IMG/VR virus record: IMGVR_UViG_3300032216_000646
Coordinates: 31,751 to 95,750 of that record
Origin: a virus
Taxonomy: Duplodnaviria > Caudoviricetes
DNA length: 64,000 bases
Direction: 5' to 3' (one strand)
Each line of letters starts with the position of its first letter. The stretch's first letter is position 1. Shown piece by piece: positions 8,856-55,352 of this stretch. The notes below the pieces were generated by a model, which did no database searches, had not been told where the DNA came from, and worked only from the letters and a program-made list of their open reading frames with translations. Made by a program: the position numbers and the translations under genes.

Positions 8856-9751
8856 CCTCTCTCTCTCTCCCTCTCTCTAGCCAAAACGACCCTTTTGGCT
8901 CATTTGCCGCACCCTAACCCTTTGGCTACTGCCTCCAGTAGATACCCTCAACCATGTCTCCGCTCTGGGGGTGACCTGCGCACGGCTTCGACCGAAGGTG
9001 GGGGGGTCGGCGGATGGGCTGTCGGATGGCTGACGGACGATGGGCGAGTGCGAATCCTAGTGGTCGGCTGACCACCTGACAAGTAGTGAGGGGGGAATCG
9101 TTATACAACCGTGACTTTGGCTACTGCATCCGTCAGATTGGCGGTCGTGAAACCGCTTCCAAAGTATTAGCCACCACCCTCCACTGTTATCAGGTGTGAA
9201 CCCAGTGTTTACGAGGGTGTCAGGTGGCACGAGGCTCGTAGGCGGGCTTTCACCATGTAGGTGGTGTGATTGGACGTTTTAGGGGGGTCAGACCCTCCTA
9301 GGGGCATCCTGTGGCGTTTTAGAGGGGGTGGCTGGTCAGCCAGTTGGAGGCATGTATAACAATCGTATAACGATGCCATTTACCTATTGACAGGACAGCC
9401 AACTTATGGTAGCGACCCCAAAAGTCACAGTTTGATAACAATCTCTCCCTCTCTCTTGACTTATCTCTCTCTATGTGCATCTAACCCTCTACCTGAACTT
9501 GAATGTTCAGGGGGGGTGACCCCCCCTGTGACCCCCCTATAACGATTTGGTAACGCCTATTGTGCGACAGGCGGTTTTATGGTATTTCGCACGTGTGCGC
9601 ATGCGCCTGCGCTCGCACACCCAGATAAAACTGACCAAAACAATCGTTACCAAAACGTTACCATTTGCCTCTGTCGGAATGTCCTACGGATGTGCAAGAC
9701 TGGGGGGGTCGGCAACCCGCACCCACACGCACGTGGTCGGAGGCGCTGGCA

Positions 9752-9856
9752 GACCCCCCGTGCGGGCGGGTCGCAGGTGAGTGGATTCGCCTGCGATGCC
9801 ACCCCCGCACCTACCGCAAGGTGACCGCCTCCCCGCAAGGGCTAGGGTCGGGGGTC
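9752..9856 (+). ncRNA. Candidate structured RNA (multi-branch junction with two GCAA tetraloops)
   Basis: gaccccc/gggggtc closing stem; gtgcggg/cccgcac; tcgcaggtga/tcgcctgcga with G:U; acc-GCAA-ggt; ccc-GCAA-ggg. Confidence 0.45.
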
Positions 9857-10095
9857 GAGGCTCACGAACCGCCACTGACCGTGATAACTCCATAGTGACT
9901 ACGAAACACACATACAGGATTCCGACACCAGCCACGAAGTAGGCGCATCATGCGCCGATTCCAGTTGCAACAAGGTTCAGCCTCTCCATCGACAGGACGA
10001 TGGCGTGGCTGGTGTCGACCCTCCTGTCTCTGACCGCTTATCGGACACCAGCGCTCCCCCCGCTGGTGTCCGTTGAGTTGCCAGAGGCAACTCGA

Positions 10096-10111
10096 TGTTT
10101 CACGTGAAACA
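10096..10111. promoter_or_regulatory. parS centromere-like site (perfect consensus)
   Basis: TGTTTCACGTGAAACA, exact 16-bp palindrome matching the bacterial chromosomal parS consensus. Confidence 0.85.
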
Positions 10112-10157: not shown

Positions 10158-11504
10158 ATGACATACGCAACCATCATCAAGTCGGCACACAGTGCCTCAC
10201 TGCCACGAGAGACCGTGGTAATCGCAACGCCATCAGGCGTCCGTGCATTCACCCGCACCAACAACGGTGCGAGGGGTGCATCCAACAAGTGGTCGGTCGG
10301 CTCACCAGCCAACGCCGACCTCGAACTGGTCTACGGTCAGCCAGTGTCTCTGGCACTGACTGCCACTGACCTTGCCGAACTGGACTCTGCTCCATCGCAC
10401 ACTGGCTACCCTGCCAACATGCTCCAGCGTCTAGGTCGTGCCATCCGCACAGAGGTCGCACTGACCTCGACCAAACTGGTCGACCAGTTGGCAACCGTCT
10501 GGCATCTAGCCGAAACGGACGCCGACTCACTGGGTCAATACGTCAAGGGTCAGACAGTGGCATCCGTGCCGACCATGTCTGCTCCGACCGTGGTTGCCTC
10601 CGTGGTGACTGCTCCGAACGTGCCAGTTGCATCGGCATCCGTCAGCCAGTCCGTCAGCGGTTCAGCGCCAGTCGCATCGAACGCATTGCGCATCCCGCAA
10701 CTGACAGAGCCAGAACTTGCGGGCTACATTGACCGTGTGTTCGGCAACAAGAAACGCACTGGTGTCGAACTGCTCGACCACGCTCGCAAGGTCGGATTCA
10801 ACGTCCGCATCGAGGGTCACGCAGGCACTGGCAAGACCACGTTCACCCGCTACTATGCGGGCATGCGAGGTCTCATTCACGTTGCTATCCCATGCTCCCC
10901 GCAGACCGACTCACTGGACGTGCAGGGTGGCTGGGTGCGTGACTCGTTAGGTGGCTGGAGATTCCAACTCTCTCCATTCGCAGAGGCGATTCAGCAACCG
11001 TCAGTGATTCTGCTCAACGAGGCGAACCGCATGCCATCCAAGGGTCAAAACATGTTCTTGCAGGTTCTGCAGGAGCGCCGACTGACCTTGTCGACCTACG
11101 ACAACAGCGTCATTGAGGTTCACCCTGACTGCCTAATCATTGCCGACCTGAACGCTGGTCGGCAATACGTAAGCACGAACGCACTTGACCCTGCATTCGT
11201 TGACCGATTCAAGTTGCCAATCGTGTTCGGTTACGACCGTGACATCGAGGAGAAACTGGTCAAGTCCAAGACCCTGCTCGACTTCGCATGGAACGTGCGC
11301 AGTCAGCCACAGGTCTACAGAGACACCCCTGTCTCTGTCCGCATGTTGACTGCATTCGAGGCGAACGCCATCGGGTTGCAGGACATCAGCATCGCCATCG
11401 AGGTGTTCGCAAACGCATTCACCAACCCAATCGAGCGTGACAGCATCCGCACCGCTCTTGAGGCGGAGGCATTCCGCATTGAAACCGACCTAGGCATTGC
11501 CTAG
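10158..11504 (+). CDS. MoxR/CbbQ/CobS-like AAA+ ATPase
   Basis: GHAGTGKT Walker A; ILLNEANR variant Walker B; LDPAFVDRF arginine finger. Confidence 0.85.
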   Translation: MTYATIIKSAHSASLPRETVVIATPSGVRAFTRTNNGARGASNKWSVGSPANADLELVYGQPVSLALTATDLAELDSAPSHTGYPANMLQRLGRAIRTEVALTSTKLVDQLATVWHLAETDADSLGQYVKGQTVASVPTMSAPTVVASVVTAPNVPVASASVSQSVSGSAPVASNALRIPQLTEPELAGYIDRVFGNKKRTGVELLDHARKVGFNVRIEGHAGTGKTTFTRYYAGMRGLIHVAIPCSPQTDSLDVQGGWVRDSLGGWRFQLSPFAEAIQQPSVILLNEANRMPSKGQNMFLQVLQERRLTLSTYDNSVIEVHPDCLIIADLNAGRQYVSTNALDPAFVDRFKLPIVFGYDRDIEEKLVKSKTLLDFAWNVRSQPQVYRDTPVSVRMLTAFEANAIGLQDISIAIEVFANAFTNPIERDSIRTALEAEAFRIETDLGIA

Positions 11505-11526: not shown

Positions 11527-13566
11527 ATGAACGAACTAATCATCCGTGAGAGCGTCCGTGACGCTCAATCCGAATACGCACAGCGTTGGGCATCGGTCGT
11601 TGCGAAGTTCGCAACTGCACTGACTGGTCAGCGCATCGACTGCTCACTCTCTGCAGAGACCATCGCACCAGCGTGGTCAAGTGAGTCGAGCATCTGGCTA
11701 TCAGAGCCAACCTTGCCTGACCTCCAGACCACACACGGTGTGTTGGTTGCCAAGGGTCTGGCACTGCACGAACTGGGTCACATCCTGTTCACCCCTCGCA
11801 ACGCAACCCAGTGGAGACGCACCGTCAACGCAGAGGGTCTAGGCGAGGCGATGAACATCCTTGAGGACATGCGACTTGAGTCATTGCTGGTCGCACGTCA
11901 CCGTAGCAGTGTCTCACCATGGTTGTCGGCGCTTATCCTGCACTACCTGCTGGACGATGCCAAGACCATCCCGCTTGCATTCCCTTTGATTCATGGGCGC
12001 AAGTTCTTGCCACTGGCAGTCCGTCAGGACGTCCGTGACGCCTACGAACACCAGCACATCGTGCCTGACCTCGTGCGCATCATTGACGCCTACCGCAAGG
12101 TAGTTCTGCCTCGTGACACTGACCTGTCTCTCGACCTCATTCGTGAGTTCAAGCAGGTTCTTGACTCTGTCAAGCCGACTGGCTCTGGCACTGGCAACGG
12201 TGGCACTGGCGAGGGCGAGGGTTCAACCAGCCAGCCACCGCAGGGTGGATGCGGAGTGCCTAACCCGAACCACCCGACTGGTCGACCAGAGTCCTACGAC
12301 TCTGACCCTGACCACGCACCTCTGTCCAACAAGGAGCAGGAGCAGTTGACTGACCGCATGGACGAGACCACAGAGGGTGGCGAGACTGACGAGTCACCTG
12401 CCAAGGACAAGGACGAGTCCGCAACAAACAACCAGCCAGCCGATGCAGATGATGCTGACGCCGATGGTGACGATGCGGATTCTGACGGAGGCGATTCATC
12501 CGACAGTGACTCCGACAGTGACGCCGATGACGATTCTGATTCAGATTCAGATTCGACCGATGGCGGTTGCACACTAGGTGGCTCGACCGATGGTGACTCC
12601 GATGGCGATGCTGACGGTGACGCCGATGGCGATGCTGACGGTGACAACGGTCAGCCAACCGACCAGCCAACCGACAAGGGTGGCAAGGGTGCAGGTCAGG
12701 ACGATGGCTCACAGCCAGCGCCTACCAGCCTGCAGGACGCACTGGACGCCATTGCCTCGACCCTGTCTGACGCCATTAGTCAGGTGCAGGAGCAGGTAGG
12801 TCTGTCACCTGACCTCCAGTCAGTTGACAACGTGTTCGCACAGCCTGCCGACTACAACGAGGTCAAGATGGATGACCCGAAACTGGGTCACGCATCCATC
12901 ACCATGGCGGAGGAGTTGGAGCGCCTACGTGCCGAACACGAGCCTGCATGGGAGCGTGAGACCCGCACTGGACGCCTCAACGTTGGACGCCTAGTCAACA
13001 ACGAGGACACCGACCTACCATTCGACCGCTGGAACGATGGTCAGGACGATGTCACCGCAGTCGAGGCAGTTATCATCCTCGACAACAGCGGGTCGATGGC
13101 TGGCGAACGTGCCACCAACGCCTACCGTTCGATGTTCGCTCTCAAGAGTGCGCTCGACATGCTGGGCGATGCACGTTGCACCGTGTTGACATTCAACTAC
13201 CGTGCGCACCTGCTCTATGGTGCGGACGAGGTTGCAGGCTCAACCATCCGTGACGCAGGCGCATCAGGTGGCACGAACGCACACGATGCCATCGCCTATG
13301 CGACCAACGTCCTTGCCAAGTCAGAACAGCCAATCAAGTTGTTCTTTGCCATCACCGATGGTGACTGGTCGGACGCCAACCGTTCGGATGAACTAATCGG
13401 CAAGTTGCGAGACGCTGGTGTCCTCACCGCCATCGCACAGGTCGGTGGCGGTTCAACCAACGACCACGGATGCGAGGTCTACAGCGATGTCAACAACACC
13501 GCCGACCTCCTCGTCCTAGGTCGCAAACTGGTCAACCTCGCAGTTGACCGCAACCTCGCTCGCTAG
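11527..13566 (+). CDS. CobT-like protein: HExxH metallopeptidase-like domain, acidic linker, vWA domain
   Basis: HELGH..NILEDMRLE; D/S/G-rich linker; IILDNSGSM..GGT..ITDG MIDAS motif. Confidence 0.85.
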   Translation: MNELIIRESVRDAQSEYAQRWASVVAKFATALTGQRIDCSLSAETIAPAWSSESSIWLSEPTLPDLQTTHGVLVAKGLALHELGHILFTPRNATQWRRTVNAEGLGEAMNILEDMRLESLLVARHRSSVSPWLSALILHYLLDDAKTIPLAFPLIHGRKFLPLAVRQDVRDAYEHQHIVPDLVRIIDAYRKVVLPRDTDLSLDLIREFKQVLDSVKPTGSGTGNGGTGEGEGSTSQPPQGGCGVPNPNHPTGRPESYDSDPDHAPLSNKEQEQLTDRMDETTEGGETDESPAKDKDESATNNQPADADDADADGDDADSDGGDSSDSDSDSDADDDSDSDSDSTDGGCTLGGSTDGDSDGDADGDADGDADGDNGQPTDQPTDKGGKGAGQDDGSQPAPTSLQDALDAIASTLSDAISQVQEQVGLSPDLQSVDNVFAQPADYNEVKMDDPKLGHASITMAEELERLRAEHEPAWERETRTGRLNVGRLVNNEDTDLPFDRWNDGQDDVTAVEAVIILDNSGSMAGERATNAYRSMFALKSALDMLGDARCTVLTFNYRAHLLYGADEVAGSTIRDAGASGGTNAHDAIAYATNVLAKSEQPIKLFFAITDGDWSDANRSDELIGKLRDAGVLTAIAQVGGGSTNDHGCEVYSDVNNTADLLVLGRKLVNLAVDRNLAR

Positions 13567-13588: not shown

Positions 13589-13632
13589 ACTGGCTGGCAT
13601 CGGGCTTATCACACTCACCGATGCCAGCCAGT
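13589..13632 (+). other. 15-bp intergenic stem-loop (possible processing site or terminator)
   Basis: actggctggcatcgg / ccgatgccagccagt perfect inverted repeat. Confidence 0.55.
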
Positions 13633-13747
13633 TCTCACATCCGTCACATCATCCGTTAGACCTGTCTCATCCTTCGTTCAGAACTTTCTCTGGCAAGGGC
13701 AACCCGCAACAAACAAATCCATCAACGCTAAAGGAGCGTGGTAACCC

Positions 13748-14428: not shown

Positions 14429-14556
14429 TCATACACGTGTCCGTCCGTAAGTCCATCCGCCAGTTTTTGGATACCCCGGTGAAAGCCAGGTCGTACCAAT
14501 CCCTGACGGATGGACTCGGACGTTCATCGTCCGTCAACCTATCCATTGGAGCAAAC

Positions 14557-14799
14557 ATGAACCGTGAAAAAAATCAAGTCTCTCGTCCGCCTTTTATCCT
14601 TAGAGCCATCCGTCAGCCAATCCGATTAGCACTCGTGGTCGGGTTCTGCTACCTCGTGGTTGGATTCATCAACATTGAAATCTGGCTCGTCAACCAAAGT
14701 CCGTTCATAAACGGTGGTGACCTACTTGCTTGCATTCTGGCAGTGGTCGCAGTTAGAGTATTAGTCCGCATCATCCCCGACACCAAGAAAGTGAAGTGA
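14557..14799 (+). CDS. Small membrane protein
   Basis: GGAG RBS; two hydrophobic segments. Confidence 0.6.
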   Translation: MNREKNQVSRPPFILRAIRQPIRLALVVGFCYLVVGFINIEIWLVNQSPFINGGDLLACILAVVAVRVLVRIIPDTKKVK

Positions 14800-15503: not shown

Positions 15504-15647
15504 CCTCAAAGAATACGGACGTCACGGATACGTGGCGTCCGTGTTCGTCTTATCCGTAACAACATCCGTAACAGCGTCCAAACATCCAAACAGCGTTGTA
15601 GCCGTTTCGGTGTTTGGCAATCCAACAAGAAAGAAAAGGTGATACCC

Positions 15648-15779: not shown

Positions 15780-16009
15780 TGACCATTCACATTGACCTCT
15801 CCAATCTTGGAGACCCAGACGAACCATTCAACGATGAAGTCATGCAAGCGTTAGGCAAGAGCCTCACCCTATGGGTGAACGGTCATGCACACTTGCTCGC
15901 ATCCATCAACCCATCCGTCACCGTGTCCGTTGACGAACCCGAAGATGTCCCCACGGGAAACGCCGTTGGGTCAGAACAACAAGAAAGAAAAGGTGATACC
16001 CATGAGTGA
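15779..16009 (+). CDS. Hypothetical protein
   Basis: Coupled ORF MTIHIDLS. Confidence 0.6.
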   Translation: MTIHIDLSNLGDPDEPFNDEVMQALGKSLTLWVNGHAHLLASINPSVTVSVDEPEDVPTGNAVGSEQQERKGDTHE

Positions 16010-16157: not shown

Positions 16158-16465
16158 TGAACGATTCACCACTAAAGAAATGTCCAGTCTGCATCCGTGC
16201 CTACCGTGGCATGGGCGCACTGTCACGGAGAGACAACCAGACCGAGGTCTGCTCTGACTGTGGTCAGCGTGAGGCGCTGGAGGCATTCGTAGGACTGTCC
16301 GCAACAAACAATCCTGCCGACCCTGCCACCACCACCTGCAAGCACTGCGGTGAGACCGTCCGTCACGATGGCATCGGCGCATGGGTTGACGAGACCGATG
16401 GTGATGGATGCCTGCAAATCACCAAGTTCAATCAGGTTCACGAACCAGTATTGGCAGGTGCATGA
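16154..16465 (+). CDS. Cys-rich zinc-binding protein
   Basis: CPVC..ALSRRDNQTEVCSDCG..CKHCG. Confidence 0.7.
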   Translation: MMNDSPLKKCPVCIRAYRGMGALSRRDNQTEVCSDCGQREALEAFVGLSATNNPADPATTTCKHCGETVRHDGIGAWVDETDGDGCLQITKFNQVHEPVLAGA

Positions 16466-16749
16466 TGCAAGTTCGTTTCAGTTACTCACCAAAGCACGTC
16501 AAGTTCGTCTATGACGCTGACACCGCTCGTGTCCGTGCCACGTTCATCCACGACAGCGCAGAAGTCAACTCAAAGTGGCTTACCGCTGACGAGGAGGCGA
16601 GCATAGGCGAGGTCTACGAGGACATCTACACCTACAAGGAGTATTCCATCAACCTCAAAGAGTTGCTAGAGACCGACTTCATGTTCGACTCGTGCGACAG
16701 TGAACCCTGCAACTTTGAAATCATGCTAGACGAACTATCCGCTAGGTAG
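16462..16749 (+). CDS. Hypothetical protein
   Basis: ATGA overlap with the previous gene. Confidence 0.65.
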   Translation: MMQVRFSYSPKHVKFVYDADTARVRATFIHDSAEVNSKWLTADEEASIGEVYEDIYTYKEYSINLKELLETDFMFDSCDSEPCNFEIMLDELSAR

Positions 16750-16862
16750 TCCGTTAGGGCTTATGGACGCCTTCATCCGTGGGGGCGTCCGTAACCCTCA
16801 ACCTTCAACCCTGAGTTGAAAGATTCAAACTCAACGACATCAAGAAAGAAAAGGTGATACCC

Positions 16863-17327: not shown

Positions 17328-17626
17328 TGATTAGTCAAAGCATCGACGTGCCACTCACACAAAGAGAACTCAAAAGCCTCACCGTGTTGACCTCCTCATT
17401 CATCGAGGACGTCACTGGCATCATCAAGAACGTCAAACAAAACGGTGGTGAGGTTGACATTGACTTCATCAAAGCCTCCATCGACATGGCAGTTCTACTT
17501 GCAAAGTTGAACGGTTACCGTGAGGGCGCAATCGGGCTAGAAATAGCAGAACTGGATGCCATGTTCAGAATGCCATCCGTCAACCCATCCGTAGGCTCGT
17601 CCGAAGATGACGACGAAGGGCGCTGA
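17327..17626 (+). CDS. Hypothetical protein
   Basis: TAATG coupling; GGAG RBS. Confidence 0.65.
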   Translation: MISQSIDVPLTQRELKSLTVLTSSFIEDVTGIIKNVKQNGGEVDIDFIKASIDMAVLLAKLNGYREGAIGLEIAELDAMFRMPSVNPSVGSSEDDDEGR

Positions 17627-18088: not shown

Positions 18089-18423
18089 TGGCTAAGGTCA
18101 GAGACGTGCGCAAAGCACTCAAAGCATCAGACCCAGACTCTCACATTGCAATCTGGTTCGTCACCAAGCGTGAGATGGAGCGTGAGATGGAAGTCAGCAT
18201 GACTGACGAAGTCTGGCGTCTAGCCACCACCAAGTGGCTCAAAGCCAACTACGCCACGCTCACGGAGAGCATCAAACAAATGACATGGGATGCCGAATAC
18301 GACACGGAGGGCGAGGAAGTCCACGCTGTGTCCGTAGACGCATCCGTAGACCCATCCGAAGATGAGAAAAACGGCGCTTCAGCCGTGTCCCCAAAGATTC
18401 AAAAACCAAAGAAAGTGAAGTGA
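18088..18423 (+). CDS. Hypothetical protein
   Basis: GGAGG RBS; TAATG coupling. Confidence 0.65.
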   Translation: MAKVRDVRKALKASDPDSHIAIWFVTKREMEREMEVSMTDEVWRLATTKWLKANYATLTESIKQMTWDAEYDTEGEEVHAVSVDASVDPSEDEKNGASAVSPKIQKPKKVK

Positions 18424-18758: not shown

Positions 18759-18842
18759 TCCGTAAGGATGTCCGTTGGTGGTAACCCGCCGCCAAAAAAA
18801 TAAAAATCGGCACGCAAGCCGAGAAAGAAAAAGGTGATAACC

Positions 18843-19064
18843 ATGACACGCATCAAACTCATTCGTGTTCAAGACGCACACACCCGCCTAAAAGCAGGTG
18901 ACACTGGAACTATCGTTGGAGAGTCGTTCGACCAAATCGGTTACGAACGTCTCGTCCGTCTCGATGTCCAATGGGATAGCGGGTCAACTCTCGCTATCTA
19001 CCCACACCTTGACGAGTTCGAGGTAATCACAGAACCATCCGTCGGCTCGTCCGTAAGCCAATAA
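18843..19064 (+). CDS. DUF4314-like SH3-fold protein
   Basis: GDTGTI..VQWDSGSTLAI..DEFEVI. Confidence 0.65.
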   Translation: MTRIKLIRVQDAHTRLKAGDTGTIVGESFDQIGYERLVRLDVQWDSGSTLAIYPHLDEFEVITEPSVGSSVSQ

Positions 19065-20052: not shown

Positions 20053-20258
20053 CGGGCGCACAGCAAGCGTTCAAGGCGGGCGTCCGTGAGGGCGTCCGTC
20101 AAGAGCGTGAACGCATTTTCAAATCAAATCTCTGGAACATCTTGCGTGAGCAAGGTTGGTCAGAGTTCTCAATGTCACAACTATGTGCTGAACTAGAGTT
20201 ACTCAAAGAAGTAGAGGAGAACGAGGATGCAGACATTCTTACCACTAGCAACGAGTAA
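20049..20258 (+). CDS. Hypothetical protein
   Basis: ATGA overlap; AFKAGVREGVRQERERI. Confidence 0.6.
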   Translation: MTGAQQAFKAGVREGVRQERERIFKSNLWNILREQGWSEFSMSQLCAELELLKEVEENEDADILTTSNE

Positions 20259-20954: not shown

Positions 20955-21123
20955 GAGCAAAGCACGTCACCGTGCAGAATGGCGTCCGTTGGACTATCCA
21001 TTACAGTCATACATCCGCATGTATCAAAATCGCTGGTGGCATTTCCAAAAGCCAGCACTCAAAAGAAAGGTCAGTCTGTGTCTAAAGCACGTATCGGAAC
21101 TGATAAAGAAACTAAGCAAATAA
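20947..21123 (+). CDS. Small basic hypothetical protein (58 aa, not in ORF track)
   Basis: AAGGAG RBS; MAKSKARHRAEWRP. Confidence 0.5.
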   Translation: MAKSKARHRAEWRPLDYPLQSYIRMYQNRWWHFQKPALKRKVSLCLKHVSELIKKLSK

Positions 21124-21314: not shown

Positions 21315-21595
21315 ATGAATCGTGGGTAGGGGCAATCTGCTCCGAAACTGACCCTGAACTTTTCTTCCCAGAGAAGTTGAGCAACACTACACAAATCAGG
21401 CAAGCAAAGCGCCTCTGCGCCACGTGTCCACTCACCGCCCAATGCCTAGAGGTGGCTATGAAAAAGCCATACGAGGGCATCTGGGGGGGAACTCTACCCA
21501 GTGAGAGAGCAAGCATGAAAAGACATCCTGAACTAATCCAAAAACACCTAAAAGAACTGAGGGCAAATGCTAGAACTATTGAGCAGGCTGACTAA
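21311..21595 (+). CDS. whiB: WhiB family transcription factor
   Basis: C-x-x-x-DPELFFP..CATCP..C..GIWGGT. Confidence 0.9.
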   Translation: MNESWVGAICSETDPELFFPEKLSNTTQIRQAKRLCATCPLTAQCLEVAMKKPYEGIWGGTLPSERASMKRHPELIQKHLKELRANARTIEQAD

Positions 21596-21798
21596 TGGAA
21601 CAGCCAGATTTATTGAACAAAGACGACGTGGCAAAACTCGCAGGGTTCAAGTCACGCACGACCGTGAGGCTTTATCAAAAGCGAGGCATCCTTCCCAAGC
21701 CAGACGTTTACGTCAAGAGCAAGCCGATGTGGAACAGGTCAACTATCGAAAGATGGAACTGTGACCGCAACAGCATCGAACTGGTAGAGATTCCGTAA
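21595..21798 (+). CDS. MerR/Xis-like winged HTH protein
   Basis: LLNKDDVAKLAG..TVRLYQKRGILPKPD..PMW. Confidence 0.7.
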   Translation: MEQPDLLNKDDVAKLAGFKSRTTVRLYQKRGILPKPDVYVKSKPMWNRSTIERWNCDRNSIELVEIP

Positions 21799-21867
21799 GA
21801 CTATCCGTAAGCCCACTTCGCTGCCAAAAAAATGTCAGTGGGGTGTGCTAAGAAATCGAGGGCAATA

Positions 21868-42697: not shown

Positions 42698-44692
42698 TTA
42701 CTTGGCTTCGCCCCACTTGTCGACAACGTAAACTTCTGCTTTCAATGGAATAGTAATCTCTTTTAGACGAATACCCTCCATCGACTCACGGATAGCCTCA
42801 GCAACTTCCTCAGCCTTACCCTCTGGAGCAATAGTTACCAGTTCGTCATGCACAGTCAAAATCAAGTTCACATCAGGCTCGTTGATGAAACACGAATGCG
42901 CACGCACCAAAGCCAACTTCATAATGTCAGCGGCTGACCCCTGAATCATAGTGTTGAACGCCTGACGTTCTGCACGAGCCAACAACCCCTGCTCACGGCT
43001 CAACAAGTCAGGAATGTAACGGCGACGTCCGAACAAAGTTTCGACAAACGGAATCTGCCCAGCCTGTTTAGCCATACGAATAACCTTGCCCTTGTATTTC
43101 GTAATGTCCGAGAATCTTGCTTCGAAGTCAGAAAGAAGTTTTTTTGCTTCCGTGACGGAGATGCCTACGGACGAAGCAATCTTGTCAGGTCCGACACCAT
43201 ACGAAATAGCGAGAACCAAAACCTTACCCGCCTTACGGTCAACGCCCAACGTGTCACCAATAGTCGTATAAATGTCCCCACCAACCATGTAGTTTTCAAC
43301 CAGAATCGGGTCTCTCGACAACGAAGCAATAACACGAGGTTCAATCTGAGAATAATCAGCAACAACCAACTTGTAACCTGGAGGAGCAACGAACAAGTTA
43401 CGAACCAACTTGCCATACTCACCCGACGACGGGATGTTCTGCAGATTAGGCTCAGACGACGAAAAACGCCCCGTCTCAGCCCCGTGAGCCTTGAAGTTGG
43501 TGTGAACCCGTCCGTTGATTAGAAGGCTCTTACGGTCGGTTACAGTCTCTTTTCCATTAGTAACACGCTTCACCTCACCACCCGTGTAAGGGGTTACATA
43601 AGTAGTCATCAACTTGTTCAAGTCCTGATACTCCAGCAAAGCATCCACAAGGGAATCCTTGCCACGGTAATACTCAAGCGCATCTGCAGAAACCGAATAC
43701 TGAGACTCAGTCAAATCACCCCTAAGCATCGAACGACCCTTAGTAGTCAAAGTGTTCTTCATCTTCAAGTTAGGGACAATACGAGGCTTCTTACCATCCT
43801 CAGCAGTAAACAACAACTTCTGCTTTGCAGGGACAGAGTTGATAGCAAAAGGCTTACCAGCAATACGATACGCCTTAGCCTCAGCCGCAATCTTATCCTC
43901 ACTAATCTGTTTAGCAAGAACACCCAAAGCCTCTTGGTCAATGTAAGCACCAGCCAACTCCATGTCACACAAAGCCGCAGTAACATCCATCTCCAACTTC
44001 CAAACCTTACGGAGATTACCCGTAATCTTTGGAGCAAGCGCCTTATACAAACGCCAAGTCAACTCAGCATCAATACCCGAATAGTTTGCAACATCCTCAA
44101 ACGAATGCAACGCAACATTCTCACCAATACCCTTAGCCATGTCTACGCCCAGTTCACGCTGAACACACGCCTTCAAGTTCAAACCATTCTTATTCAAGTT
44201 ATTCACAACAAACGCAGCCATCAACGTATCAAAATACGGTTTTACAGGCACACGCCCACGGTAATACTTAGCAATCGACTTCAAATCAAACTTAGCGTTA
44301 TGCGCAACCTTCAACTGGCTACCAAACATGAGTGGCTCAATCGCATCAAAAACTTGCCTCGGCGTAAGTTGCTTTGGCGCTTCAGCAAACTTGGCTGTCC
44401 ACTTGCGTTCATCTTTTGAAAAATGTGACTCAAGAATCTCTTTGCCAGCAGCGAGGCGACGTTGTCCCTCAAGCAACAATGGCTTATCCCAACCCTCAAA
44501 TGAACCATTAGGGTGACCCATAGGAATGACGTCAGTGCGACCCTCAGTCGCAAAAGAAATCCAGCACACGTCATTGATGACTGGATACAGGCGGTTCTCG
44601 CCAATAGTCTCAACGTCAAACGCAAAAGCGTCAACGGAGGAGTAAAACTTTACGAACTCTTTTAGTTGTTCAACAGTGGTAATAATGTTCAT
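42698..44692 (-). CDS. polA: DNA polymerase family A with 3'-5' exonuclease
   Basis: FDVET, HNAKFD, TGRFSSSEPNLQN, ADYSQIE, NTMIQGSAAD, VHDE. Confidence 0.95.
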   Translation of the reverse strand: MNIITTVEQLKEFVKFYSSVDAFAFDVETIGENRLYPVINDVCWISFATEGRTDVIPMGHPNGSFEGWDKPLLLEGQRRLAAGKEILESHFSKDERKWTAKFAEAPKQLTPRQVFDAIEPLMFGSQLKVAHNAKFDLKSIAKYYRGRVPVKPYFDTLMAAFVVNNLNKNGLNLKACVQRELGVDMAKGIGENVALHSFEDVANYSGIDAELTWRLYKALAPKITGNLRKVWKLEMDVTAALCDMELAGAYIDQEALGVLAKQISEDKIAAEAKAYRIAGKPFAINSVPAKQKLLFTAEDGKKPRIVPNLKMKNTLTTKGRSMLRGDLTESQYSVSADALEYYRGKDSLVDALLEYQDLNKLMTTYVTPYTGGEVKRVTNGKETVTDRKSLLINGRVHTNFKAHGAETGRFSSSEPNLQNIPSSGEYGKLVRNLFVAPPGYKLVVADYSQIEPRVIASLSRDPILVENYMVGGDIYTTIGDTLGVDRKAGKVLVLAISYGVGPDKIASSVGISVTEAKKLLSDFEARFSDITKYKGKVIRMAKQAGQIPFVETLFGRRRYIPDLLSREQGLLARAERQAFNTMIQGSAADIMKLALVRAHSCFINEPDVNLILTVHDELVTIAPEGKAEEVAEAIRESMEGIRLKEITIPLKAEVYVVDKWGEAK

Positions 44693-45479: not shown

Positions 45480-45965
45480 TTACGCCTCTCGTGGTTGCAC
45501 TACTTCTCTCCATCGGCGGACTATTGCCTCTGTCAAGTCATTGTGCTGACTCCACTCTACACGAGCAGAGCCTAGAAGATTGCGTTTTGAAAACTCTTCA
45601 ATAGCAATCTCAATAAGTTGTTTCGTGTAAACACGATTACCACTTACTTTTTTACCATTCAGGCTCTTCGAGCGCAAACGGTATGGTGCAGCAGGAATGT
45701 ATCCCTTGCGTTCCCATAAACGGATAGTGACGATTTGCTTTTCAAGTGCCTGTGCAAGCGCACTGATAGTGAATACGTCCGTCTCCACTCCCTGCAGATA
45801 CTTCTTGATAGGATTTTCATCCCACCCGTTAGACTCTCCAAGAATCCTAGCACGCCTTTGCTGAGACACCGCTGTTGGGTCTCGGCGTGGCTGTTTAGAG
45901 CCTGGCGCTTTATCGAGACCCTCAAAGGCTTTGAGAATCTCTGCGTCTGAACGAAGTCCAGCCAT
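45480..45965 (-). CDS. MerR-like HTH DNA-binding protein
   Basis: FTISALAQALEKQIVTIRLWERKGYIP..RVYT. Confidence 0.7.
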   Translation of the reverse strand: MAGLRSDAEILKAFEGLDKAPGSKQPRRDPTAVSQQRRARILGESNGWDENPIKKYLQGVETDVFTISALAQALEKQIVTIRLWERKGYIPAAPYRLRSKSLNGKKVSGNRVYTKQLIEIAIEEFSKRNLLGSARVEWSQHNDLTEAIVRRWREVVQPREA

Positions 45966-46425: not shown

Positions 46426-47994
46426 CTAAATAAGCGTTTCTGTTAGAAAGTTTATTAGACTTCCTACTGTTAGGTCAACCCCACCTTTGGAGTTTATACC
46501 AGAACCATCCAAGATTGCACCTGCCACGTTACTTTTTTGTTTCAGCGTGTCGTGCTGTCTCTGTTCAATAGAATCCTTGACCAGAATGTCTTGAATAGTA
46601 ATGCTATGCCATTCCGATGACGTTCTGTTGATTCTACCGTTTCTTTGCACAGCGAGTCCAGAACTCCATGGCTGGTCGTAGTTCAAGAGAAGATTACCTT
46701 GAGGCAAATCCACACCATAGCCGCCAGCGTCACTAGATACCAAAACACGAACGTTCCGCTCGGTCTGAAAGGATACTTTGGCTGATTCTTTTTCTTTGGC
46801 ATTCATCTCTCCTGTGTATGCTACCGCTTTGAACCCAGCCTCGTCAAGAGCCTTTACTAAGTCGCTAACTGAAACTAGATAAGAACTAAATACTACCGCT
46901 TTGTAGGATGGGTCAATCTCAAGGTGGTCTTTTAGATAAGAAATCGCTGCATCACGTTTAGGATGTTTAGCCAACCCATCTAGTTTGTCAGCCAGCGAGT
47001 AAATGTAAGCACTGCCAGAACCCTGCTGTTGTTCAAATGACACTGCAGAGTGTGCTAACAATGTCGGACCTGAACATAGCATCCGTAAGGCGGAGATACG
47101 AGACATGATTTGCCCACGCATAGTGTTGGCTGGGTCATCAGGGGTATACGTCTGTCCGTAATGTGAAGCCAGATTGAATGAACTACCAAACGTTTCACGG
47201 GCTTCAACTAGAAGGGAGTAAAGGTCTTTTGCAATGTAGTCATACACTTCACGTGCTTTTTTATCTAAAGAAACCAAGATTGGTTCACGATAAATGGCAT
47301 CTGGAAGATACGGTTTTACGTCTTCGTCTTTTTGAGATTTCCTAACGGATGCCTTACGGAGAGTCTCATGGAGGACGGGTAGATTACGGTAACGGTCAAC
47401 GCCACCAAAATGGTTACGGACAATAAACGTTTTATCAAAGATGTCAAACCTACCAAGGATGGTGGAGTCTACAAACTGCATAATCGAATAGATTTCTTCT
47501 GGTCGACCATTCTCAATAGGAGTTCCAGTCAACGCATAACGGATAGGAATCTTCTTGGCTAGTTCTTTTACTTTTTTGGCTCGCTTGGCTCGGAAACCTT
47601 TGATAGCGGTTGCTTCGTCGCAAATGACAGCATCAAATACAAAACTTTTGACAACATCCCAGTCGTTCACCACCTGTTCGTAGTTCATGATTACATAATC
47701 GTGTTTTTTGGCTTCAACGTATTGTGCGTAACGTTGCTTAGGTGTTCCGTCAACCACAATCGCAGTTGCATCACTAAACTTCTCTATTTCTTTTTTCCAC
47801 TGGTATTTGAGGCTGGCAAGACACAGCACCAAAGTTAGATTGGAAACTTCGTTAGAATCACGCAGCGACTCAATGGCTGCAATCGTCATCGGCGTTTTGC
47901 CTAGACCCATCTCGTAAGCGACCAGAATCTTTTTAGATTCGACCATCTTAGTGACGGCTTCAACCTGATACGGTTTCAGCGTCCCTTTGAACAT
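46426..47994 (-). CDS. SNF2/SF2 helicase
   Basis: MGLGKT, DEAT, LTGTP, GGYGVDL, QRNGRINR. Confidence 0.9.
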   Translation of the reverse strand: MFKGTLKPYQVEAVTKMVESKKILVAYEMGLGKTPMTIAAIESLRDSNEVSNLTLVLCLASLKYQWKKEIEKFSDATAIVVDGTPKQRYAQYVEAKKHDYVIMNYEQVVNDWDVVKSFVFDAVICDEATAIKGFRAKRAKKVKELAKKIPIRYALTGTPIENGRPEEIYSIMQFVDSTILGRFDIFDKTFIVRNHFGGVDRYRNLPVLHETLRKASVRKSQKDEDVKPYLPDAIYREPILVSLDKKAREVYDYIAKDLYSLLVEARETFGSSFNLASHYGQTYTPDDPANTMRGQIMSRISALRMLCSGPTLLAHSAVSFEQQQGSGSAYIYSLADKLDGLAKHPKRDAAISYLKDHLEIDPSYKAVVFSSYLVSVSDLVKALDEAGFKAVAYTGEMNAKEKESAKVSFQTERNVRVLVSSDAGGYGVDLPQGNLLLNYDQPWSSGLAVQRNGRINRTSSEWHSITIQDILVKDSIEQRQHDTLKQKSNVAGAILDGSGINSKGGVDLTVGSLINFLTETLI

Positions 47995-48967
47995 AGGCTG
48001 ATTCTCCATAAATAGCGGACTTAGCGTTACCAACACCCCAAACGAGTTCTTCGTCAGTCATGTCGCCTGGGTCTTTCTTACTACTCTCACCGTAGTTGAA
48101 AAAGAACACATTCATACCGTATTTGCGACTCCAAACACGCATTTCATCACAAGCCTTCTTGCCTGCTTTGTCAATGTTTGGGTTATCAAATGCGATAACA
48201 ACCTTCTCTGAATACCTGAGAAGTTTTACTTGAGCCTCGCTTACGGATGACCCGCAGACTGCAACAGCACCGTCAATACCAGCGGAGGCAAAACGAACGC
48301 AGTCAAGCGGAGACTCAACGACAATGACCACGTCTTCGTTCTGGTTTTCGATACCAAATAAAGTCGAGGACTTAGTTAGCCCTGCAGGACGGTTCTTGAA
48401 AGTTCTGTCTACAGTTCCCTTTTCCTGCCAACCAAGTAACTGGCGGAAGTGTGGGTCACGGAGCGGCAAAATCCATGTCTTCTTACTATTGTCCCACATA
48501 ACGCCATACTTCTGGGCGGCTTCTAGGGTTATGCTACGGCTGTCTAGAGCCTCTTGTGGAGGGTCAACGAACACTGCCAAGCGTGCCTCAGACATCTCTA
48601 ACGGCTTTGGGTCAGGTGGCAGGTATGACGGTAATGACTTTAGAATCTCCAGCATGCGTTCTGGGCTGACTTGAGCGACTGTTGCCAGCCATTCCCTGCC
48701 TGATTTGTAGTCATACTCTTCTTCGTATTGACCCCATGATTTTTGGTAAAACTCTTTGACATCGCAAACTAACTGGACAACGTTACCTTTGTAACCACAT
48801 GAGAAACAAATGTGCTGACCAGACTCAAGGTTTATGAACCATGACGGATTGTGGTCTTCTTTGCCTGTGCGTTTTTGGTGCATCGGACAAATGGCTGACG
48901 CCTCATGCCCAAGCAATCCAAAGTCAATGCCTAAAGCAACTAGAACACTTTCAATGTCAACTGTCAC
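47960..48967 (-). CDS. DNA primase (zinc finger plus Toprim)
   Basis: CPMH..CFSC; VVESPLD; FDN..D. Confidence 0.88.
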   Translation of the reverse strand: MTVDIESVLVALGIDFGLLGHEASAICPMHQKRTGKEDHNPSWFINLESGQHICFSCGYKGNVVQLVCDVKEFYQKSWGQYEEEYDYKSGREWLATVAQVSPERMLEILKSLPSYLPPDPKPLEMSEARLAVFVDPPQEALDSRSITLEAAQKYGVMWDNSKKTWILPLRDPHFRQLLGWQEKGTVDRTFKNRPAGLTKSSTLFGIENQNEDVVIVVESPLDCVRFASAGIDGAVAVCGSSVSEAQVKLLRYSEKVVIAFDNPNIDKAGKKACDEMRVWSRKYGMNVFFFNYGESSKKDPGDMTDEELVWGVGNAKSAIYGESAYVQRDAETVSG

Positions 48968-50214
48968 GGAGTTACCCACGGAGTGCAAAACTTGCAGGTA
49001 TTCTGGGCTGATTCGTCATGGAAACACCCAGTGTCCCAGTTCCAAGTAATGCTGGTTTCTGACGGAGGACAGTTACGAGACTGGACAATCTTTAGCAAGC
49101 GAATCTGGTCGTCTCCCTCAACTGGTTCAAGACCAAGGATTACGTCAGAGTCTTGGAAGAATGATGATGAGTAACCAATGGAGTCAGCAGAGACTTTTCC
49201 GCCCTTCATTTTCCAAAGGAGAGTCTGTGTGGTGATTACAACTGGGATGTCTAGTCGTTGAGCCATACGCTTGAGCGCACGTGTGATGTTGGTAAGCGCT
49301 TGTGGAGTGTTTGAGTCGCCAGTAACTTGGTCAAGCATCAGGTAGACACCGTCAACAAATAAGATTTCTGGCTTCAACTGCTCTGCTTTAGCCAATAGTG
49401 CATCAACAGTCAATCCGTTTACTGCGTCTACAAGGTGAAACGGCTTCTTGATTTTTAAGTCGTCAAGCATGTCAAGGTAACGGGTTTCTTCAGAAGACTG
49501 AAGTTTTCCACGACGTAGACGTGCTGAGGAAATGTTGGCACGCATAGCATCATGGCGTTGAGACTGTTCACGGTTGTTCATCTCAAACGATTGGAACATT
49601 GGGATGTGACCAGCCTCATGGGTGTTCACCGCTACTCGCAAAGCAATCTGGGACTTACCAGTCTTTGGTGGAGCAATAATAGTTACCAACTGACCTCCTT
49701 GAAGACCAGCGGTTGCTTCGTCAATCTTTAGGAAACCCGTAGGGATACCAAGCATCACAGAGTTCTGCACGTCTTCGTATTGCTTGAAGCGAGCGTCAGG
49801 GTCAGTAGTTAGGTCAACGTGTGTTGTGCCTTTGATGCCCTGCTCGTTGACAATGGCAACGGTCTTTTCCATCTCGACCAAAGCCGAGTTGTGGTCATTA
49901 GCAGAAACTTTTTCTAGAACTAGTTCAACACCAGCACGAGTAAGTGTGCGGCGACGGAACTCGACCATTTGGTCAATCAGATACTCAATGGTGTCTGCTA
50001 CGTCAAAGATTTTGTGGTTAGGGAAGTTATCTTTCACTACTACGCCAGTAGGAACTTCTCCGTAGGTTGAGTAGTGTTCTCGAACAAACTTCCAGACACG
50101 ACGGAGGTCATCATCTACAAACCAATCATCTTTGATTCCTCGTTCAAGAACGGGGATGATGTTACGGTCACGGATGACCTTACTTACGAGCCGATGCTCA
50201 TTATCTGCTGCCAT
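48964..50214 (-). CDS. dnaB: DnaB-like replicative helicase
   Basis: APPKTGKS, SFEM, FVDGVYLM, FQDSD. Confidence 0.9.
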   Translation of the reverse strand: MAADNEHRLVSKVIRDRNIIPVLERGIKDDWFVDDDLRRVWKFVREHYSTYGEVPTGVVVKDNFPNHKIFDVADTIEYLIDQMVEFRRRTLTRAGVELVLEKVSANDHNSALVEMEKTVAIVNEQGIKGTTHVDLTTDPDARFKQYEDVQNSVMLGIPTGFLKIDEATAGLQGGQLVTIIAPPKTGKSQIALRVAVNTHEAGHIPMFQSFEMNNREQSQRHDAMRANISSARLRRGKLQSSEETRYLDMLDDLKIKKPFHLVDAVNGLTVDALLAKAEQLKPEILFVDGVYLMLDQVTGDSNTPQALTNITRALKRMAQRLDIPVVITTQTLLWKMKGGKVSADSIGYSSSFFQDSDVILGLEPVEGDDQIRLLKIVQSRNCPPSETSITWNWDTGCFHDESAQNTCKFCTPWVTP

Positions 50215-52803: not shown

Positions 52804-53060
52804 TACCGACGATTATAGTTGTTTACAACTACAGGTCGGTTCACTAGCATCGATAACACGCCTGATACAAATGCGGCAGAAAAACCACAGACAACTAACT
52901 GGAAACCAATGATGTCAAACAACCAACAACCAAAGTAACATAATGGAAGAGTAGTCACTAACCGTATGATTTTTGGGTTGAATGAGTCGACTAAAGCAAG
53001 CAACTCCACTAAGTAAGAGGCTGCTGCTCCCACTAAAATAACGTAAATAAAAATGTCCAT
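52803..53060 (-). CDS. Small membrane protein (holin-like topology)
   Basis: About three hydrophobic helices in 85 aa. Confidence 0.55.
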   Translation of the reverse strand: MDIFIYVILVGAAASYLVELLALVDSFNPKIIRLVTTLPLCYFGCWLFDIIGFQLVVCGFSAAFVSGVLSMLVNRPVVVNNYNRR

Positions 53061-53072
53061 ACGGACATCCTA

Positions 53073-55352
53073 TTACGAAATGCCAGACGATTCTACTCCA
53101 GCAGCAGAACGAAGCACCCATGGCGTGTCATGAGGCAAGATTCTTTCGATTTCCATAACTGTTCTAGTTAGTTTCAAAACTTTATTTGGGTAATAGTAAG
53201 TTGTGGAAGCATGTGCAGTCCCAGACCATACAGCCCCATAATCTACTGGTAATGAGCCATCGTAGTAATCATTTACAGAGATTGACTGTTCAAACATTGC
53301 ACCATCAAAATACACGTGCTTACCCGCATCTCCAGCAATAAAAGCAGTGGCGCTGTAAGTGTATGGTCTTGCGTATTTAGCACCAACAGGTGCAACTGCG
53401 GTTACGGTTACACGAGTCCAACTTCCAGTAGTCACTGTAGTAGTATTTCCCGACACGCCACTTCCAGTAATAAAAGTTGGGGTTGAGTCATAGAAATCAA
53501 TGGATGATTTGTATTGCTTTGCGGTATCAACATCTTTTACGTAAATCGAATAAGTGTAGGTTTGACCTGCAGTTACTGGGGGCATGTACGCTGTGGTTGG
53601 AGAAACAGAAATACCAGAAGTAGTAGCACTTCCAGCAATAGTTAGGTAAGCAGATTTACTTCCGTATAACGCTTGAGAAGAGGAAGTAGCCGCTGAAACG
53701 TTTCTAGTTGTCCAACCCGTAACGTTTGTTTCAAAAGAAGGGTTAGTAATGTAGTTGATTTTGGCTGGGTTTAGGTAAATGTCTACTCCACGAGCCTCAC
53801 GGAAAGAATCCTGAGCGCCTAAAGAAAACTGCATCATGTCCAAGTAGTAAGTTCCAGTATTACCAAACAACAACTTGACGCTTGCAAAATACGCTTTTGA
53901 AGTGTTTTTACGGATAGTGGCGTTTGTGAAAGCAAGATTATCTAGGTCAGCATTTATTACGGAGTACGTTACGGACGTAGAAGTAGTGCCAGTTAGAGTA
54001 AACGTTCCAGCGTAAGGAGCGCCAGCAGTAGCACTTACTACCACACTGTCACCAGTAGTAAATGTATGACCTGTTGCAACAGTTATGGTGACCACGTTAG
54101 ACACTAACTTCCCAGAAATCGCTGTAGTTTCAAAGCCAGGTGCTTCAGCACTAAAAGTTTTTCTAGCCCATGAAGTAGAAGTGCTGAGTGCGCTACCAGT
54201 AGAAGGAGACCCTATTAGCGCACCTTTAGAGTCATACCAACTAATGGAAGGAGTGACGTTACGAGTTCCAGTAGTACCGTCAGCAGTCCTGATGTAATAC
54301 GAAAACTCGTAAACTCCACCAGCAGAAACTGGGATTCCACGAGTCAACGGAAAGTCTGCTCCGTTAGAAATAAAAGCGTTAGCAGTAGTGACAACTACTT
54401 GACCAACTGAAGCCTTCTCAATGGCGTAAGCCTCAGTCGTAGGGGGAATGATTGTTTTTACAACCGATAAAGCGCAGTTACCAAAAGGCAACCAAAAACC
54501 AACATTTGACTCAAAACTACTGTCATTCAAAGACAGCATCAAGTTGGTTGAAGTAGTGATTTTTGGGTCAAAACCACACACAGCCTCAACACCAGTAGAC
54601 AACGCACTCATCGTCCCCTTACGTTGATACGTATACATTGCCTCCCGCAACAAACGTTTCTGGTTTTTCATTGGAACAGCAGCCGCTTGGTCAATACCTA
54701 ACGCATCAAACTGAGTAGATAAAGTTTCTGGGTTAGTACTTTGACCAGTAAAGTCTGGGATGAGCAAATCAGCGTAAGTGGTCAACTCGTCTTGAGTAAA
54801 CGCAAATGGAGTCAAAAACTGGAATAAATCAGACTCTTGGTCTACTTCGTCAATGTAAGACTGGCTTTTTGAAGTAAACACTCGTGGAAGCAAATCCATC
54901 ATCTTATTTTGAGTATTTATTAGAGTAGTTTTGTCTGGCTTTAGAGTTGCGTGCTGCCTAGGAATAAGAGCATAAGTTTCACCAGCAACCGCCCATGCGC
55001 CGCCTGCATTTTGAATCCACATTCGGTAATACACGTAACCACCACTTTTTAGAGCAATGTTGTTAGTAGTGTCGGAGTCAGTAAAGTTGTCGACACCATC
55101 AATAAAATCCGCAAGAGGGGTAGAGTCAGAAACTACTTGCCAAAGAATCACACCATCTTCTTGTGTTTCTGGGTATCCGTAAGAGTTACGAACAAGCCTA
55201 AGTGCGGTGTAAGTACCAGTGGCTGGCGACCAAGTCAAACTTACTTTGTCATAGTCAATAGCCTCAGCCGTCAATGGCTCAACGGATAGGGTAGTTCTAG
55301 CAACTTCACCGTAGTTGATGTTGCTGTAATACGATTGACCGTATTTAGCCAT
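53073..55352 (-). CDS. Baseplate wedge/tail protein with carbohydrate-binding modules
   Basis: LLPRVF..YQRKGT wedge motif; NPSFE/SSFE CBM-like repeats. Confidence 0.75.
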   Translation of the reverse strand: MAKYGQSYYSNINYGEVARTTLSVEPLTAEAIDYDKVSLTWSPATGTYTALRLVRNSYGYPETQEDGVILWQVVSDSTPLADFIDGVDNFTDSDTTNNIALKSGGYVYYRMWIQNAGGAWAVAGETYALIPRQHATLKPDKTTLINTQNKMMDLLPRVFTSKSQSYIDEVDQESDLFQFLTPFAFTQDELTTYADLLIPDFTGQSTNPETLSTQFDALGIDQAAAVPMKNQKRLLREAMYTYQRKGTMSALSTGVEAVCGFDPKITTSTNLMLSLNDSSFESNVGFWLPFGNCALSVVKTIIPPTTEAYAIEKASVGQVVVTTANAFISNGADFPLTRGIPVSAGGVYEFSYYIRTADGTTGTRNVTPSISWYDSKGALIGSPSTGSALSTSTSWARKTFSAEAPGFETTAISGKLVSNVVTITVATGHTFTTGDSVVVSATAGAPYAGTFTLTGTTSTSVTYSVINADLDNLAFTNATIRKNTSKAYFASVKLLFGNTGTYYLDMMQFSLGAQDSFREARGVDIYLNPAKINYITNPSFETNVTGWTTRNVSAATSSSQALYGSKSAYLTIAGSATTSGISVSPTTAYMPPVTAGQTYTYSIYVKDVDTAKQYKSSIDFYDSTPTFITGSGVSGNTTTVTTGSWTRVTVTAVAPVGAKYARPYTYSATAFIAGDAGKHVYFDGAMFEQSISVNDYYDGSLPVDYGAVWSGTAHASTTYYYPNKVLKLTRTVMEIERILPHDTPWVLRSAAGVESSGIS

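Follow-up and report, generated by a model that had tools for sequence, protein, structure and literature searches.

Background

Dispersed, polar repressor sites are established in the cluster A mycobacteriophages (PMC9283540). Arrays of another kind are used by BldC, Xis-type factors, Apl, and D29 Gp36, which bind head to tail on two to four direct repeats spaced by about one turn and control transcription or recombination, and members of the group formed by BldC, Xis, and Gp36 act in both processes (PMC5859096, PMC12266134, PMC7498355). Here, we describe a tandem word that is dispersed through the genome of IMGVR_UViG_3300032216_000646, an uncultured actinobacterial freshwater phage of the myovirus type. 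The window that was analysed is a stretch of 64,000 nt (bases 31751-95750 of the 95,750-bp genome), and all coordinates below are window positions. The consensus word, CATCCGTMAG, is repeated head to tail with a 12-bp period in two or three copies. With a probability of about 0.5, we read these tandem words as dispersed double-stranded DNA operator arrays for a phage-encoded regulator that would bind them head to tail.

A 10-nt word repeated with a 12-bp period

In the window, the plus strand has 24 pairs of TCCG at a distance of 12 nt and the minus strand has 11, with 0-4 pairs at every other distance from 1 to 40. The whole genome holds 27 and 12 such pairs, respectively (39 in total), with 0-5 at other distances. 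All 39 plus-strand TCCG starts listed in an earlier, sequence-only reading of this DNA were confirmed in the sequence. That reading had also predicted an excess at distance 12 over a codon-shuffled control, which was borne out: when synonymous codons and intergenic bases were permuted and every protein was kept, the genome gave about 4 exact pairs versus the 39 observed, and only the 12-bp spacing was enriched. On the plus strand of the early, plus-strand gene block, 23 pairs were observed where 1.99 were expected, and on its minus strand 2 where 0.39 were expected. For the rest of the genome, the corresponding figures were 10 and 0.26 on the minus strand, which runs with transcription, and 4 and 1.10 on the plus strand, which runs against it (P = 0.03).

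The 39 pairs form 36 arrays, 15 of which lie in or overlap intergenic DNA, and about half of the sites are inside genes. Together with the shuffles and the single enriched spacing, the intergenic arrays refute chance, or a side effect of codon usage and repeated peptides, as a general explanation, and we regard its probability as negligible. A few of the in-gene sites may nevertheless be due to chance, as they sit on conserved peptides, such as SVEVSV in the ribonucleotide reductase (RNR) gene (pair at 25103..25122, minus) and VRQxVR in the CobT-like gene (12020..12039, plus). The same RNR pair is present in one relative, L182. A weak pair at 12499..12518 (plus), which consists of TCCGACAG twice, coincides with an Asp/Ser coding repeat and is possibly fortuitous.

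In-gene sites are found in reading frames 0 and 1 only. Since the sites span two frames as well as intergenic DNA and are far above the codon-preserving shuffles, selection acts at the nucleotide level, as the sequence-only reading had suspected. Homologous genes of relatives reveal two ways in which the word arose. In RNR and CobT, codon choice wrote it onto the conserved peptides. For the pair at 22223..22242 (plus) in the integrase gene, an Ile/Leu and a Pro of all relatives have both become Arg (CGT), four codons apart, and these changes, seen in no relative, create the two cores.

Alignment of the 39 pairs gave a unit of 10 nt (C/T, A/G, T, C, C, G, T, A/C, A/G, G) and no information content outside the two units. 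The unit is thus longer than the TCCG(T) proposed earlier, with conserved positions at -2, -1, and after TCCGT. Three exact units are present in three arrays, and in several others a third unit is degenerate. Outside the block, single TCCGT words (90 plus, 115 minus) are near expectation and unbiased, which makes the tandem array the functional entity. A weight-matrix scan for two units returned 49 sites at spacing 12 versus 0-9 at spacings 9-15, and reversed sequence, used as a control, gave 1-2 sites. Weight-matrix hits at spacing 11 or 12, with neighbours merged, make up the 46 loci referred to below. Units within a pair are only slightly more alike than units of different pairs, which rules out tandem duplication as the origin of the pairs and argues that they are kept up unit by unit.

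Orientation of the arrays

Nearly all genes of the phage are on the minus strand, the sole exception being a 15-kb plus-strand block (8322-23537) that ends in convergent terminators facing the RNR operon. The sequence-only reading had the repeats oriented with transcription. This is so in the early block, where 22 of 22 weight-matrix loci in or between plus-strand genes are plus-oriented, and in the region from 23.7 to 54 kb, where 12 loci run with transcription and 2 against it. The claim fails in the late or structural region (from 59.6 kb over the contig join to window 0), whose minus-strand genes hold 6 plus loci and 2 minus loci. Two good arrays in the noncoding region 8855-10158 are minus-oriented, namely a three-unit array with spacings of 11 and 12 (9007..9037) and a pair 3 nt after a hairpin of -19.5 kcal (9671..9690).

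Downstream of the plus block, minus-oriented sites are found in the RNR gene (the pair on SVEVSV and a degenerate pair at 25348..25367), the TGT/DpdA-like gene (27249..27268), near the 3' end of a gene (28410..28429), and inside two further genes (32721..32740 and 37210..37229). Others lie in the UvsX-like gene (41018..41037, degenerate), the DNA polymerase gene (43152..43171), a helicase gene (47342..47372, three units with spacings of 12 and 11, the first degenerate), where the DnaB-like helicase and primase genes meet (48963..48982), and in a tail gene (53956..53975). The replication module has one site per 1-6 kb. The two loci running against transcription in this region are a weak, degenerate pair in the RNR gene (24290..24309, plus) and a good pair with 11-bp spacing between the RNR and TGT-like genes (26194..26212, plus). 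The latter had already been named as an exception, as had a good 12-bp pair in a structural gene (59626..59645, plus), and both are real.

The orientations can also be described by map position. A two-arm model with convergence at 23.7 kb and a switch between 53975 and 59626, beside the initiator-like gene at 51805-52803, fits 40 of the 46 loci, as compared with 36 for co-orientation with transcription. The words could accordingly be polar DNA-traffic sites that act in replication or translocation in the manner of KOPS, Chi, or Ter, converging on a lox/dif-like palindrome beside the recombinase and switching polarity near an origin. The arrays would then arrest or guide, and the genome would be like a miniature chromosome with origin, parS, polar words, and ter/dif, perhaps that of a plasmid prophage. 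Besides the number of loci fitted and the lambda O-like/DnaD-like initiator gene adjoining the switch, such a role agrees with the orientation of the late sites despite their minus-strand genes, a density that climbs toward 23.7 kb from both sides, the host-type parS at 10096, a recombinase without an arm-binding domain, and a 10-7-10 palindrome between insulating terminators. However, the two models differ at only 8 loci, and a count of 6 out of 8 does not differ significantly from no polarity, about 2 plus-oriented late sites being expected by chance. KOPS and Chi are single short words, whereas tandem pairs alone are enriched here. The arms are very unequal (approximately 30 and 66 kb), the minus-oriented arrays at 9007-9690 do not fit, and the motif is unenriched in every sampled Actinomycetota genome. 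We consider both the traffic role and the miniature chromosome quite unlikely.

Arrays at gene junctions

From 10638 to 23697, the plus block contains 20 exact arrays, or about 1.5 per kb, of which some half are intergenic or on stop codons. Arrays occupy nearly every junction between its small cassette genes, often directly past a terminator-type hairpin. A junction module recurs, in which a stop codon is followed, sometimes after a strong hairpin, by an array, about 45 nt with a small hairpin, and a 24-nt start box (AAGAAAG, A/T, R, AAGGTGATA, M, CCATG). Plus-strand copies of the box belong to six early-block genes (14781-14807, 15624-15650, 15978-16004, 16839-16865, 18405-18431, and 18819-18845), and a minus-strand copy belongs to the gene for the single-stranded DNA-binding protein (SSB; about 45422-45450). 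The box is similar to the start-associated sequences of cluster K mycobacteriophages (PMC3203893).

Five plus-oriented arrays end 65-76 nt upstream of an ATG with this box. They are the intergenic pair at 15553..15572 (76 nt upstream of ATG 15648), a three-unit array with a degenerate first unit at 15902..15933 (69 nt, ATG 16002), the intergenic pair at 16776..16795 (68 nt, ATG 16863), a three-unit array at 18331..18362 (67 nt, ATG 18429), and the pair at 18759..18778, which starts 1 nt past a stop codon (65 nt, ATG 18843). The hairpin background has a mean of -8.5 kcal and a 1% tail of -19.9, and 3-5 of the 36 arrays have a preceding hairpin beyond this tail. Hairpins of -29.3, -29.6, -28.1, -19.5, and -19.5 kcal end 3-9 nt upstream of the arrays at 13640, 15553, 23591, 23776, and 9690, respectively. 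The first (13590..13631, plus) has a 14-bp stem, follows the CobT stop, and lies 8 nt upstream of the intergenic pair at 13640..13659 (plus), and the second (15511..15546, plus) follows a stop at 15503 and lies 6 nt upstream of its pair.

Further plus-oriented sites are found within genes, namely in the CobS/MoxR-like gene (10638..10657, frame 0), the CobT/VWA-like gene (11543..11562, frame 1), and a small gene (20083..20102, frame 1). At or near gene ends are a pair 16 nt past a stop codon (14444..14463), one overlapping a stop codon (16738..16757), a three-unit array at the 3' end of a small gene (17576..17607), and a pair at the 3' end of a DUF4314 gene (19038..19057). The plus-oriented sites also include degenerate pairs at 14530..14549 (second core TCCA), 16286..16305, and 20985..21004 and a three-unit array with a degenerate first unit at 14597..14628. 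Site density peaks between 14.4 and 20.3 kb, among small genes without a counterpart in the related loci. The peak coincides with a lineage-specific cassette region (14437-20258, plus), whose dozen or so small genes, several of which encode zinc-ribbon proteins, lack homologues in 171 related loci.

A gene-free stretch of 200 bp separates the convergent terminators. On its left, an intrinsic terminator with a T-run (23542..23581, plus, -28.1 kcal) closes the plus block, and 9 nt past it follow a three-unit array (23591..23622, plus), a pair (23678..23697, plus), a palindrome, a single unit, and an opposed pair (23757..23776, minus). The opposed pair comes directly after the terminator that closes the minus-strand operon (23778..23813, minus; hairpin of -19.5 kcal). 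The palindrome (23702..23728), just downstream of the plus-oriented pair, is perfect, with 10-bp arms around 7 bp or a 12-bp stem, and is a candidate recombination site or terminator. Five arrays are counted around it within 23591-23776.

The modules bring to mind cassette-junction activator sites or unconventional promoter elements that would restart each small early gene, the hairpin and start box forming with them a mobile regulatory cassette like the T4-type promoter-stem-loop units. The five arrays that end 65-76 nt before an ATG with an identical box, the arrays that follow terminator hairpins, and the concentration in small genes without homologues in relatives all accord with this, and BldC-type proteins activate as well as repress (PMC5859096). 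On the other hand, there is no -10-like hexamer at a fixed distance and no TANNNT within 40-50 nt of the intergenic sites, matches to sigma-70-type promoters are not enriched, and arrays face the gene-free 200 bp. No phage RNA polymerase or sigma factor was found among about 80 proteins scanned, which are part of the gene set. Activator sites are, in our view, unlikely. A canonical promoter role was ruled out, because there is no second element and no excess of promoter matches and half of the sites are in genes.

The same junctions could be read at the level of RNA, UCCGUNAG-N4-UCCGUNAG in the transcript serving a dimeric RNA-binding protein or nuclease as a binding or cleavage site for the processing or stability of polycistronic early RNA. 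Strict sense-strand polarity in early and middle genes is consistent with this, as is the position of the junction sites between an upstream hairpin and a downstream hairpin with a ribosome-binding box, as for a processing site. The core CGU is also similar to the CNU of mycobacterial RNase E sites. But precise 12-nt phasing of identical words is typical of DNA-binding oligomers and rare in RNA recognition, good antisense sites exist in late genes and at 26194, and arrays lie beyond both terminators in gene-free DNA. Neither a conserved secondary structure nor an RNA-binding candidate was found, except for a weak HicA-like match, and an RNA element is likewise improbable.

Candidate binding proteins

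Of the two proteins with a winged helix-turn-helix (wHTH) that the sequence-only reading had put forward as binders, one gained in plausibility. The gene at 21595..21798 (plus) encodes a stand-alone MerR/BldC/Xis-like winged-helix protein of 67 aa and is located directly upstream of the tyrosine recombinase (integrase) gene, 34 bp from it. The pair at 21792..21811 (plus) overlaps its stop codon and ends 21 nt upstream of the integrase ATG. The protein matches phage DNA-binding/excisionase families (phrog_597, 7e-13; phrog_66, 3e-5), and its AlphaFold model (pLDDT 86) has a helix-turn-helix (HTH), a two-strand wing, and a C-terminal helix. Foldseek neighbours include MerR N-domains, RacA, BldC (6ama_B), and lambda gpNu1, with target-normalised TM scores of 0.62-0.66; the protein has no dimerisation helix, coiled-coil, or effector domain. 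Its recognition-helix segment differs from that of 23 orthologues (27-42% identity) and carries a one-residue insertion. With its MerR-type fold, integrase neighbour, and a site on its own stop codon, it is a putative binder, and we propose it tentatively as the best candidate. The analogy to Xis-type arrays is also supported, as two or three head-to-tail units are the layout bound by small MerR/Xis/BldC-type winged helices (PMC5859096, PMC12266134, PMC7498355).

The second protein (161 aa, MerR-like; 45480..45965, minus) is a poor candidate. Complete relatives without the motif have it with 65-74% identity and a nearly invariant HTH, and because of this conservation it is unlikely to read a lineage-specific word. 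A gp71-type repressor, with an HTH plus a stoperator domain, was not found among the proteins scanned, the scans taking in part of the open reading frames. To our knowledge, WhiB has no sequence-specific role of such a kind.

The tyrosine recombinase (21832..22998, plus) keeps the catalytic residues R, HxxR, H, and Y and has a CxCxxC insertion between its two domains (22570-22640). A separate N-terminal arm-binding domain was not detected.

Relatives and host genomes

Homologues of the CobT-like protein from the two closest relatives, with 92% (P0001) and 72% (P0002) identity, were found on 95-99-kb contigs (ENA/Logan), and single-protein searches with it in IMG/VR and JGI metagenomes gave no close relatives. 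Profile searches returned 171 related loci with 25-48% identity, about 50 of which keep the order CobT, WhiB, denV, wHTH, and integrase, followed by convergent RNR. In the 171 loci, there is neither a TCCG-12 word nor any other dispersed k-mer pair at distances 7-24. Four complete relatives contain 1-3 TCCG-12 pairs each, which is chance level, versus 39 here, and a scan of IMG/VR for the exact tandem word yielded nothing beyond coding repeats and isolated single hits attributable to chance. Given that relatives with the same gene order lack the motif, the system seems to have been gained recently in this lineage.

Two candidate analogues in the relatives were rejected: 12-nt AAGCAA repeats 3' of the integrase gene are Lys/Ala-rich coding tails, and where AGTTAG/GTTACT is enriched, the copies are mostly coding or make up inverted operators, rather than tandem pairs, ahead of the integrase gene. 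In L148 and L147, the wHTH gene carries a 12-bp direct repeat at its 3' end, which is suggestive and not significant. Three inverted-type sites, GTTACT-N4-AGTA(AC), lie between the wHTH-gene terminator and the integrase gene at L148:8740-8840 and L218:13845-13945. These relatives have a local inverted operator or attachment arrangement where the phage described here has a 34-bp gap and one tandem pair.

Among 401 Actinomycetota genomes, sampled from the phylum of an Actinomycetota metagenome-assembled genome, the strict pattern had at most 3 matches per genome (28 in total versus 17 for the control), and the host may lie outside this sample. Two of the 401 genomes (G020 and G050) are unpublished, and none of the conclusions depends on them. 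The absence of the motif from the relatives and its lack of enrichment in these genomes indicate that the regulon is, as far as sequence comparison can tell, lineage-specific and without a visible host motif. The same data bear on whether the sites are bound by a factor of the host, such as a response regulator or BldC-like protein, through which the phage would sense the state of its host. Response regulators and BldC-type proteins, both common in Actinomycetota, typically have direct repeats as their sites (PMC5859096), and the phage already carries a host-type parS. Against this are the counts in the sampled genomes and the relatives without the motif, which presumably infect similar hosts, and we find a host factor very unlikely.

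Further features of the phage genome

The source genome is complete with terminal repeats according to IMG/VR, has overlapping ends, and has 47.6% G+C. A nucleotide search against known phages gave no match; the nearest named phages are Streptomyces and Gordonia phages with 37% and 31% protein identity, respectively, and the related contigs derive from freshwater metagenomes. The phage has its own replication genes (DNA polymerase, helicases, primase, UvsX-like recombinase, and SSB) and also encodes a class II RNR, CobS/CobT-like ATPase and VWA proteins, the tyrosine recombinase, an NlpC/P60 peptidase, and WhiB. Ten further replication-module proteins had no match in Pfam, and tmRNA was the only match in an Rfam scan.

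Within the replication region, the initiator-like protein (51805-52803, minus) has a lambda O-like/DnaD-like N-terminus, and a replication origin may lie in or near its gene. The noncoding 1.3 kb at 8855-10158 contains CT-runs, at least seven G7/C7 runs, and repeated TATAACGAT-like words and is possibly an origin or packaging region. A perfect host-type parS, TGTTTCACGTGAAACA, is located at 10096-10111, just 5' of the CobS-like gene. At 20661-21314 (plus), the gene for an XRE-type HTH_3 protein precedes one whose product weakly matches the HicA toxin, possibly a toxin-antitoxin or Cro-like pair.

Eight 4-bp palindromes are depleted genome-wide, with counts of 0 each for AATT, AGCT, ATAT, CGCG, and GATC, 1 for CCGG, 2 for GGCC, and 21 for TTAA where 150-370 of each are expected, which is extreme restriction-site avoidance. 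The TGT/DpdA-like protein (504 aa, 26232-27746, minus) matches the queuine tRNA-ribosyltransferase family phrog_887 (5e-59), which suggests that the phage DNA carries a 7-deazaguanine modification. Among the neighbours of its gene, none was recognised as a gene for preQ0 synthesis.

Proposed operator arrays and their possible function

The reading of the tandem words as operator arrays is favoured because of their phasing, unit-by-unit conservation, organisation in arrays of two or three units, and placement at junctions and because the phage encodes a protein suited to head-to-tail binding. One protomer would occupy each 12-bp unit, giving two or three protomers per site, and as a head-to-tail array is directional, the sites would be polar. 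The bound protein could gate early and middle transcription, either by repression or as a roadblock that reinforces weak terminators and helps hairpins without U-tracts to terminate. In the recombinase-proximal cluster, the regulator may have a second role, either architectural or in setting directionality, as do Apl, Cox, and D29 Gp36, which are dual-purpose regulators and recombination directionality factors (RDFs). We infer repression or a polar roadblock as the effect on transcription from the analogy with D29 Gp36 and stoperators (PMC9283540).

Several observations weigh against operator arrays of this kind. The 12-bp period exceeds the 10-11 bp reported for the MerR/Xis/BldC-type family, 6 of the late sites are oriented against transcription and 2 with it, and the effector-gene array at 0-8.2 kb has no sites. 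The wHTH-integrase order is kept in about 50 relatives without such a regulon, and so a genome-wide role would have to be a lineage-specific gain. Other candidate binders are also encoded, including the XRE-type HTH protein (20661-20954), WhiB, and about a dozen lineage-specific small proteins of the block.

If the operator-array reading is true, a 67-aa protein and a tandem word of 24-36 bp would put approximately one third of a large phage genome under one switch, joining genome-wide polar repressor sites of the stoperator type with head-to-tail MerR/Xis-like oligomers, which have hitherto been studied apart. A recent gain in one lineage would provide a natural case of a local Xis-type interaction expanding into a regulon, and word and protein together would give actinobacteria a regulatory part that is compact, orthogonal, and directional. 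Given the polarity in the late genes, there is room for a more unusual function in DNA traffic.

Comparison with known systems

KOPS/FtsK, Chi, Tus-Ter, and RTP-Ter resemble the present system in having polar sites in two opposed groups that meet at a point next to a tyrosine recombinase and a palindromic site. Those systems consist of single words or a few large sites which are set by host machinery and shared with the host chromosome, and none of this is seen here.

The T4-type promoter-stem-loop (PeSL) junctions and the start-associated sequences of cluster K (PMC3203893) are similar in that modules of hairpin, signal, and start flank small lineage-specific genes in a plastic early region. 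Unlike PeSL units, the module described here is without a sigma-70-type promoter, and the tandem word is also found in large conserved genes.

With the cluster A stoperators, as bound by L5 gp71 and the TipsytheTRex repressor (PMC9283540, PMC6550527), the system shares dozens of copies of one asymmetric site dispersed in an actinobacteriophage genome, at junctions or promoters. Orientation in cluster A correlates with the direction of transcription, and here it does so in the early block and from 23.7 to 54 kb. As in cluster A, the copy number is above 20 (39 exact pairs, 46 loci). In cluster A, a monomer with an HTH plus a second domain binds a single word of 13-14 bp, whereas here two or three units are set at 12 bp. 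Also unlike cluster A, single units are unenriched, half of the sites are in genes, and polarity is lost or reversed in the late genes. The working would be stoperator-like, but without the defining single site and monomeric repressor.

BldC, Xis-type RDFs, and D29 Gp36 (PMC5859096, PMC12266134, PMC7498355) have the same size and fold class as the candidate protein, an integrase neighbour, and direct repeats about a turn apart. They use a handful of sites or a host regulon, a period of 10-11 bp, and AT-rich or GC-rich words, whereas this phage has approximately 46 sites with a 12-bp period, the word CATCCGTMAG, and strong polarity. The site grammar of this group fits that of the tandem word, which combines it with an unprecedented copy number, a 12-bp period, and polarity.

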